A stretch of DNA of 40,994 nt from a virus (taxonomy: Duplodnaviria; Heunggongvirae; Uroviricota; Caudoviricetes): the IMG/VR virus record IMGVR_UViG_2617270943_000004, positions 1-40,994 of that record. One strand, given 5' to 3'. The position numbers and the translations under genes are program-made. This document shows, piece after piece, positions 34,313-34,729 of the stretch (the first letter of the stretch is position 1; every line of letters begins with the position of its first letter). Under the pieces are notes generated by a model. That model had not been told where the DNA came from. It did not search any database and saw only the letters and a list, made by a program, of their open reading frames with translations.

Positions 34313-34483
34313 ATGCAACAGTTCGCTATTGCAGGGGCGGCATCGGTTCGCCCTTTCAACCCGATTTTATCGGTACAGCATTCACGAAAAAATATTTTAA
34401 CCGGAGCAGACTTTAAACAACCAAGAATGAAAAGTTTGCTCGAAAAGCTTTGGGATATTTTGAAACAACAAGGCCGTCCATGA
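34313..34483 (+). CDS. cIII: CIII-like protein (protects CII from FtsH)
   Basis: 56 aa; AAGGAG RBS; pattern MQ.AIAG...SLLE.L...L.QQG.P resembles recalled lambda CIII. Confidence 0.5.
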   Translation: MQQFAIAGAASVRPFNPILSVQHSRKNILTGADFKQPRMKSLLEKLWDILKQQGRP

Positions 34484-34650
34484 GTTTTACAGATAACTGG
34501 TCAGACGAAGAATTCATTCGTCAGATGAAAGAATTAATCGGTAACGAAGGAGATATTCATGTCACTTGCAACCACAGTGAAGGAGAGCAAGTTACAGAGA
34601 CGCATGTACACGCAGCAGGCGTTAATGTATCGCCAGAAGGGAGATCGTGA
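34480..34650 (+). CDS. Hypothetical small acidic protein (kil-position)
   Basis: 56 aa; ATGA overlap with the cIII-like stop; overlaps the next ORF in another frame. Confidence 0.3.
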   Translation: MSFTDNWSDEEFIRQMKELIGNEGDIHVTCNHSEGEQVTETHVHAAGVNVSPEGRS

Positions 34651-34729
34651 AGGTGTTCGCGTATTTTTAAATGCGGCAAAGACTGAAGTATTAAATCAGC
34701 GTTATTTTCTTGGGCCATGTCCATTCTGA
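34559..34729 (+). CDS. Hypothetical small basic protein (arf/kil-position)
   Basis: 56 aa; GGAG 7 nt upstream; ends 10 nt before erf. Confidence 0.3.
   Translation: MSLATTVKESKLQRRMYTQQALMYRQKGDREGVRVFLNAAKTEVLNQRYFLGPCPF

Follow-up and report, generated by a model that had tools for sequence, protein, structure and literature searches.

Between cIII and erf of a lambdoid early-left operon lie two short open reading frames that overlap in different frames, and their arrangement raises the question of whether both, one, or neither is a gene. We addressed this question in the window, a 40,994-nucleotide stretch of viral DNA (Caudoviricetes; IMG/VR record IMGVR_UViG_2617270943_000004, positions 1 to 40,994), in which all of the features described below are on the plus strand. 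ORF1 (34480..34650) begins with an ATG at 34480, ends with a TGA at 34648-34650, and encodes an acidic protein of 56 aa (MSFTDNWSDEEFIRQMKELIGNEGDIHVTCNHSEGEQVTETHVHAAGVNVSPEGRS; pI 4.6, net charge -8). ORF2 (34559..34729), in the +1 frame relative to ORF1, runs from an ATG at 34559 to a TGA at 34727-34729 and encodes a basic protein of 56 aa that is predicted to form a helical hairpin (MSLATTVKESKLQRRMYTQQALMYRQKGDREGVRVFLNAAKTEVLNQRYFLGPCPF; pI 10.1). The ATG of ORF1 is fused to the stop codon of the cIII-like gene in the sequence ATGA (34480..34483). The ATG of ORF2 is preceded at a distance of 6 nt by a Shine-Dalgarno sequence, AAGGAG (34547..34552), which is embedded in ORF1 codons 23 to 25. 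The two frames share 92 nt (34559..34650; ORF2 codons 1 to 31 and ORF1 codons 27 to 56), and 10 nt separate the ORF2 stop from the erf ATG at 34740. The original prediction had described precisely this layout, including the coordinates and lengths, the opposite charges, the ATGA coupling to cIII, a GGAG ribosome-binding site for ORF2, the 92-nt overlap, and an ORF2 end just before erf, and all of it is borne out. It had left the reality of either frame open, and frame conservation among relatives now indicates that both are real. Comparing these sequences, we consider it probable that the two are real genes with separate initiation, that the tail of ORF1 is unconstrained, and that ORF2 belongs to the HkaM family.

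The surrounding genes are arranged as a lambdoid early-left operon. A lambda-like N-type ORF (32986-33312), recognized by eye, and ral (phrog_1055) are followed by two tL-type elements upstream of cIII, the first an intrinsic-terminator-like hairpin with a T-run (34223..34246) and the second also terminator-like (34261-34285), at a place equivalent to that of the terminators annotated in HK97 and HK75. The cIII-like gene (34313..34483; phrog_550 “CIII,” E 1e-22) is a 56-aa allele that HK542 also carries. ORF1 and ORF2 come next, followed by erf (34740..35345; PF04404, E 1.2e-44; phrog_155), which encodes a strand-annealing protein, and by a gene for an SSB-like protein of the HK97 gp40 type (35345..35728; phrog_44, E 6e-27) with the C terminus ...DDSIPF. 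The anti-RecBCD gene abc2 (35752..36045; phrog_656, E 2.6e-55) closes the Rec module. HK97 gp40 has been named SSB-1b (PMC12315714). We propose that ORF1-ORF2-erf-ssb-abc2 would constitute the Rec module of an N-antiterminated early-left operon, with the two small genes at its head.

The recurrence of the pair is far beyond chance. The 250-nt ORF1/ORF2 segment is present in 1109 of 5426 complete Escherichia coli genomes, or about one-fifth, and in approximately 70 sequenced phages, and carriers of the pair include the model phages HK022, HK97, HK75, and Sf6 as well as Stx phages. Its annotation is inconsistent, and PGAP assigns two genes, one gene, or none to the E. coli copies. Around the pair, 551 bases align with phage HK542 at 98.7% identity. 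In HK022, gp42.1 and gp42 are 100% identical to ORF1 and ORF2, respectively, with the same overlap, the same frames, and the same place before erf, but the ORF1 homolog is coupled to kil there, whereas ORF1 of the window is coupled to cIII, as in HK542. The same overlapping pair is annotated as gp30/gp29 in Sf6, with 82% identity in ORF2, and gp42.1/gp42 are the annotated counterparts in HK97, except that the HK97 frames are fused by two 1-nt insertions. The GenBank records of the HK022, Sf6, and HK97 pairs label the products hypothetical. HK75_33 corresponds to ORF1, with a 100% identical protein, and ORF2, the more strongly conserved of the two, is unannotated in the HK75 RefSeq record. Searches against PHROG profiles place ORF1 in phrog_2123 (E 4e-40) and ORF2 in phrog_1723 (E 4.5e-34); we found no supporting evidence for the label “recombinase” that PHROG attaches to these two families. 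The pair thus represents real but largely known, under-annotated small genes of lambdoid phages. Our analysis adds that both frames are under selection, with ORF2 dominating the overlap, and that ORF2 is an HkaM-family member with a strict genomic position and an invariant PF terminus. It also equates ORF1 with the reported OLD trigger Gp33 and cautions that an unrecognized conserved gene is overlapped by the construct used for Gp33.

We collected relatives of ORF2 from 167 loci, which encode 23 distinct proteins with identities to the window protein down to 45 to 48%. All 23 are exactly 56 aa long, start at the same Met, and end in PF immediately before the stop codon, the one exception being the frame-shifted copy of HK97. 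Adding matches from databases and representative libraries, including distant members of 59 to 62 aa, enlarged the set to 46 distinct full-length sequences of 56 to 62 aa, of which 38 have exactly 56 aa and every one (46/46) ends in PF. The C-terminal motif of ORF2, FLGPCPF (34706..34726), with its invariant Pro-Phe-COOH, fits the family pattern [YF]F[LI]Gx(2-4)PF-COOH, and the codons of the terminal Pro and Phe vary synonymously (CCA/CCG and TTC/TTT). Over pairs of distinct members, pN/pS averages 0.40 in the reading frame of ORF2, compared with 1.27 and 1.47 in the two alternative frames. ORF2 is a genuine protein-coding gene under selection.

ORF2 is also a member of the family of HK620 HkaM, phrog_1723. 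Residues 1 to 56 of ORF2 align to positions 3 to 58 of the profile, over the full length of the protein. HkaM itself (NP_112046, 62 aa) matches phrog_1723 with an E value of 3.6e-33, and an hhalign comparison with the ORF2 family gives a probability of 92.5% (E 5e-7). Both proteins have the PF terminus and are encoded directly upstream of a strand-annealing gene. HkaM differs in being longer and approximately 31% identical, in its direct coupling to kil, and in having Sak4 rather than Erf as its partner; its context in HK620 includes neither ORF1 nor a long overlap. Besides HK620, ORF2 homologs are found without ORF1 in Salmonella phage ABTNLsp11242, Erwinia phage Eho59, and several metagenomic phages. 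A GGAG or GAGG lies 6 to 7 nt ahead of the ORF2 ATG in most contexts, including members without ORF1, although a clear Shine-Dalgarno sequence is absent at the loci L185 and L107, and the start of several copies is coupled to the preceding gene through ATGA or TAATG. In every locus examined, 7 to 12 nt separate the ORF2-family gene from the downstream strand-annealing gene, whose product varies among Erf, a RecA-like Sak4, a Rad52_Rad22 protein, and an untyped 212-aa candidate. A gene for SSB usually follows.

The 92-nt overlap allows the claims of the two frames to be compared on the same nucleotides. Our variant set comprises 42 window-type and 46 Sf6-type distinct 250-nt sequences. Sixteen of the 17 unique variants in the overlap fall at third positions of ORF2 codons (binomial p 3e-7), and 15 leave the ORF2 protein unchanged (p 2e-9). 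Read in the ORF1 frame, the same 17 variants include 15 nonsynonymous changes, 1 nonsense change (Q37*), and only 1 synonymous change. The overlap is governed by ORF2, and the ORF1 tail of approximately 30 residues is an unconstrained run-on. Alleles differ in where ORF1 stops (+80, +86, or +92), which yields proteins of 52, 54, or 56 aa. We also considered selection to keep the tail open, and reject it: when ORF2 was resampled synonymously, the ORF1 frame stayed open equally far in 16 to 44% of trials (P 0.16-0.44), so the length of the tail needs no selection. An RNA element in the overlap was likewise rejected, with a folding z score of -1.45 and no Rfam match at E<=1. The tail residues would accordingly exist only because no stop codon is met until 80 to 92 nt into ORF2. 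The pair is a neat case from nature of overlapping frames of which one is under constraint and the other simply runs on.

An unconstrained tail of chance length is also what would be expected if only ORF2 were functional and ORF1 were a functionless translated leader or an annotation artifact, open by chance. The many ORF2-bearing phages that lack ORF1 are consistent with such a reading, as are nonsense mutations in two contigs (S8* and the Q37* noted above), which demonstrate that ORF1 can be lost. The upstream part of ORF1, however, behaves differently. Its conserved N-terminal segment comprises residues 1 to 22 (MSFTDNWSDEEFIRQMKELIGN; 34480..34545), with a helix predicted at residues 9 to 20 at low confidence. 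Between diverged copies, namely, L110 from a metagenomic phage and L107/L017 from a Pseudocitrobacter prophage, codons 2 to 20 have a pS of 0.82 and a pN of 0.065 in the ORF1 frame, with ratios of about 1:1 in the other frames, which amounts to strong, frame-specific purifying selection. A comparison of the window with L107 over the N-terminal codons gives a pS of 0.97 and a pN of 0.18 in the same frame. Constraint within alleles is only modest: 18 of the 29 variants in the ORF1-only part fall at codon position 3 (p 0.0014), and 10 of the 29 are synonymous (16% expected; p 0.012), the other 19 being nonsynonymous or nonsense. The synonymous-substitution analysis across homologs that the original prediction had suggested therefore reveals own-frame purifying selection in each case, which for ORF1 applies to the N-terminal part only.

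The structure of the locus in relatives also speaks against a functionless ORF1. The frame is intact in Klebsiella phage phiKp_30 despite a 15-nt deletion, and 21- and 42-nt tandem duplications also preserve it. The ORF1 start is always fused to the stop of the preceding gene, as ATGA with kil in HK97, HK022, Sf6, and L110, as GTGA with cIII in the Pseudocitrobacter prophage, and as ATGA with cIII in the window, and this coupling is retained with three different upstream genes. After cIII, Salmonella phage SEN22 encodes a 35-aa ORF1 relative whose first 16 residues are the same and whose acidic tail is unrelated. ORF2 is missing from SEN22, and the Rec genes downstream of the ORF1 relative there include a RecE-type exonuclease VIII. 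Membership of ORF1 in the phrog_2123 family is evident from its profile match and from its 100% identity to HK022_42.1 and HK75_33. ORF1 is a real gene under selection in its first ~20 codons, and we regard the ORF2-only alternative as quite improbable. The overlap of the ORF1 start with the upstream stop, that of cIII here and of kil in relatives, would allow translational coupling, and the functional part of ORF1 may be the acidic N-terminal helix of about 20 residues. ORF2 would initiate independently at its own AGGAG-N6-ATG within ORF1 codons 23 to 27.

A different way of reconciling two overlapping frames is to regard them as parts of a single product of approximately 82 aa, an ORF1-ORF2 fusion generated by programmed +1 ribosomal frameshifting in the overlap. 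ORF2 indeed lies in the +1 frame of ORF1, and HK97 gp42.1 is a single 83-aa protein that joins ORF1 residues 1 to 43 to ORF2 residues 16 to 56. A large protein database holds about 10 further fused proteins of 76 to 82 aa, one of which occurs on 36 contigs. Most of these proteins, however, are singletons from raw assemblies, and their junctions are scattered from ORF2 residue 1 to residue 27, as expected from random single-base deletions anywhere in the 92-nt overlap. Unfused forms are far more common, with database clusters of 200 to 500 member sequences. In HK97, two 1-nt insertions are accompanied by a T>G substitution, which supplies a new in-frame ATG, served by the same Shine-Dalgarno sequence, as the start of HK97 gp42; the combination points to mutational repair rather than to a recoding signal. 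The three alternative ORF1 stop positions likewise come without a conserved slippery or stall motif. On the separate question of an ORF1-ORF2 complex, an AF2 model of a natural fusion (P0010) assigns the ORF1 part pLDDT values of 53 to 60 and does not place the ORF1 helix confidently against ORF2. Programmed frameshifting is thus unlikely because ORF2 has its own Shine-Dalgarno sequence and ATG, many phages carry it by itself, the ORF1 stop is variable, the fusion junctions are scattered, and the region has no significant RNA structure. The fused forms look like indels, and the proposal that the fusion is the functional product is the least probable of the readings that we weighed, verging on the negligible.

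Having two separate genes at this position raises the question of their relationship to kil and arf of P22-like operons, whose place they had been predicted to occupy. The slot between cIII and erf is correct, with the refinements that neither ORF is Kil and that the link to arf is positional. Kil, the FtsZ inhibitor (PF06301), was rejected for either ORF since neither has a Kil match in Pfam or PHROGs. Moreover, relatives carry a separate kil gene between cIII and ORF1, as is the case in HK97, HK022, Sf6, and HK75; kil is absent from the window, as it is from HK542.

P22 Arf (accessory recombination function; PF17585) is a small, acidic protein of 47 aa, and its molecular function is itself described as unknown (PMC12315714). 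ORF1 could be its ortholog, with ORF2 as a lineage-specific addition. ORF1 occupies the arf slot after kil or cIII and ahead of erf, resembles Arf in size and acidity, and shares with it the (W/F)SDEEFI motif, located at an equal offset. Relatives of ORF1 weakly match the Arf family phrog_2445 (E 0.03-0.07), and one nr record names an ORF1 homolog “accessory recombination function protein.” Against this interpretation, a Pfam search at E<=0.1 does not link ORF1 to PF17585 (Phage_Arf), and aligning the ORF1 and Arf families with hhalign returns a probability of 2% (P 0.024 over 16 columns). Nothing in ORF1 corresponds to the C-terminal half of Arf, which is conserved (EQQINLAAERQN..W.EF.G), and Arf overlaps a downstream gene by at most 4 nt. 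Membership of ORF1 in the Arf family is not supported, although a common origin of the N-terminal helix is possible, and orthology combined with a lineage-specific ORF2 appears unlikely on balance. Erwinia-type phages encode a 49-aa acidic protein ending in ...DFDFIRALYEMxxPGVK, the stop of which abuts the ORF2 ATG through ATGA. Homology of ORF1 to this protein was also rejected, as the likeness is confined to the DFDFIRAL motif and hhalign gives a probability of 0.7%.

What ORF1 might do is suggested by work on phage defense. T7 gp5.9 is close in size to the 56 aa of ORF1. Both T7 gp5.9 and lambda Gam are small acidic RecBCD inhibitors, and ORF1 with its net charge of -8 is acidic as well, a resemblance that we treat as a functional analogy only. 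P2 OLD is an abortive-infection nuclease for which Gp33 of HK75 and HK446 is reported to be a trigger, and the HK75 protein is identical to ORF1. According to a 2026 preprint, expression of the HK75 gp33 coding sequence from pBAD sets off P2 OLD toxicity with the same strength as the complete Rec locus, and lambda Gam and T7 gp5.9 are likewise OLD triggers (bioRxiv 10.64898/2026.07.10.737580). In the hypothesis of its authors, Gp33 inhibits or otherwise manipulates RecBCD and would be new in this role; they handle it as a single gene, and ORF2 goes unmentioned (bioRxiv 10.64898/2026.07.10.737580). Drawing on that study, we suggest that ORF1 may perturb host RecBCD or DNA-end processing and that P2 OLD would sense the perturbation, and we put the chances of a RecBCD-related role for ORF1 at about even.

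The published gp33 cloning primers (Table S5) match window positions 34480-34502 and the reverse complement of 34634-34650, so the pBAD-gp33 insert is exactly the ORF1 coding sequence. The same insert necessarily carries the Shine-Dalgarno sequence and first 30 codons of ORF2, without its conserved C-terminal half. If only ORF2 were functional, the OLD-triggering effect would have to come from the truncated ORF2 peptide or from overexpression stress. ORF1 is the most economical candidate for the OLD trigger, with the truncated ORF2 peptide as a less likely alternative. HK75 gp33, a candidate RecBCD modulator, therefore requires frame-separating mutations for its genetic dissection, since its region includes the ribosome-binding site and codons of ORF2. 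We identified three such mutations: 34560 T>C, which turns the ORF2 ATG into ACG and is silent at His27 of ORF1; 34502 C>A, which introduces S8* into ORF1 at a site not shared with ORF2; and 34588 C>T, the naturally occurring Q37* change of ORF1, silent at Ser10 of ORF2.

The product of ORF2 is modeled by AF2 as a two-helix hairpin with helices at residues 7 to 27 and 30 to 51 (pLDDT 89). Foldseek comparison of this model with the PDB returned generic helical hairpins only (E>2), a PDB sequence search gave no match below E 0.05, and PADLOC and NCBIfam profile searches produced no meaningful match. HkaM was originally named “arf” by position and afterwards regarded as an orphan without known function; oligonucleotide recombineering with Sak4 and SSB did not require it (PMC5928155). 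The dispensability of HkaM in that assay disfavors ORF2 as a core recombination cofactor, and we view any specific role assigned to ORF2 as doubtful. Its product would be a basic two-helix hairpin with a free ...FLGxxPF carboxy terminus, expressed directly before the strand-annealing protein, of whatever type, that the phage encodes. It may act on a feature shared by all of these modules, for example, SSB or DNA ends, and not on a particular recombinase family.

The invariant end of the ORF2 family, ...F-x4-P-F, resembles the tip of SSB, ...F-D-D-D-I-P-F. The SSB tip recruits ExoI, RecQ, RecO, PriA, and, in HK620, Sak4. On the basis of this motif resemblance and synteny, HkaM-family proteins could conceivably be SSB-tail mimics that compete for or redirect the SSB-tip-binding pockets on host DNA-end-processing enzymes, a speculation to which we assign little probability. 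If it were true, the acidic ORF1 product as OLD trigger and the basic ORF2 product would form a two-part unit for the takeover of host recombination, half of which is overlooked by current annotations and by the OLD study.

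ORF2 (34559-34729, +; HkaM family, 56 aa) lies directly upstream of erf. In its distant relatives (L180-L187), a conserved junction, CCGTTC-TGA-GGTGA-N3-5-ATG, includes the ORF2 stop codon, which the Shine-Dalgarno sequence of the strand-annealing gene overlaps; the equivalent junction in the window, at 34727-34739, is TGAGAGCAATCATATG. Because of this overlap between stop codon and ribosome-binding site, the sequence suggests that ORF2 is translationally coupled to the strand-annealing protein. Only in Salmonella phage ABTNLsp11242 did we see ORF2 and the recombinase gene separated: an HNH endonuclease gene (L005, 879-1349) has been inserted between the ORF2 homolog and erf. 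The ORF2-family proteins all end in PF, a terminus that they share with the HK97 gp40-type SSB-like protein encoded at 35345-35728 in the window. The C terminus of the latter, ...VYDDSIPF, is a classical SSB C-terminal tip, and a Pfam search with this protein gave no match.

ORF2 is also present in HK75 (NC_016160; 1501-1671 of the collected locus, L188), where it is 100% identical to that of the window. The HK75 RefSeq annotation lists ORF1 (HK75_33) and omits ORF2. The preprint on P2 OLD defense describes the rec locus as gp33, Erf, gp31, and Abc2 (bioRxiv 10.64898/2026.07.10.737580), and given this annotation the locus therefore includes an unlisted fifth gene, ORF2. The gp33 construct used in that study includes the ORF2 Shine-Dalgarno sequence and 30 ORF2 codons. 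The same preprint identifies HK446 gp27/Oad2, a P22 EaE-like protein, as an anti-OLD protein, and a 163-aa ORF downstream of abc2 in the window (36199-36690) may be its counterpart. The gp27 forward primer reported there, ATGAAACAAATGACACTAATTGAGATG, looks like an 11-letter protein segment of the window.

Upstream, the cIII gene (34313-34483; MQQFAIAGAASVRPF...QQGRP) is a 56-aa allele, in contrast to the lambda/HK97/P22-type cIII of 44 to 53 aa. It is joined directly to ORF1 with no intervening kil gene, an arrangement also found in HK542, SEN22, phiKp_30, and a Shimwellia prophage. A weak terminator-like hairpin with a T-run (CGTGAAGGTGTTCGCG TATTTTTAAA; 34646-34661) lies within ORF2 at the ORF1 stop codon. 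HK620 carries an annotated terminator, tL2D, within hkaM. Conservation of the hairpin sequence does not extend to the Sf6/HK97 allele.

ORF1 itself occurs in variant forms. In four database proteins (P0059, P0064, P0034, and P0053) and two collected loci (L042 and L174), the N termini of N, cIII, or other proteins are fused in frame with ORF1, always at or close to ...NWSDEEF. These fusions may represent either recurrent deletion or recombination at the ORF1 start or assembly artifacts. Two further database proteins, P0029 and P0036, carry one or two extra in-frame tandem copies of the seven-residue unit EFIRQMK within the conserved ORF1 helix, and they are encoded by E. coli and Salmonella prophages.
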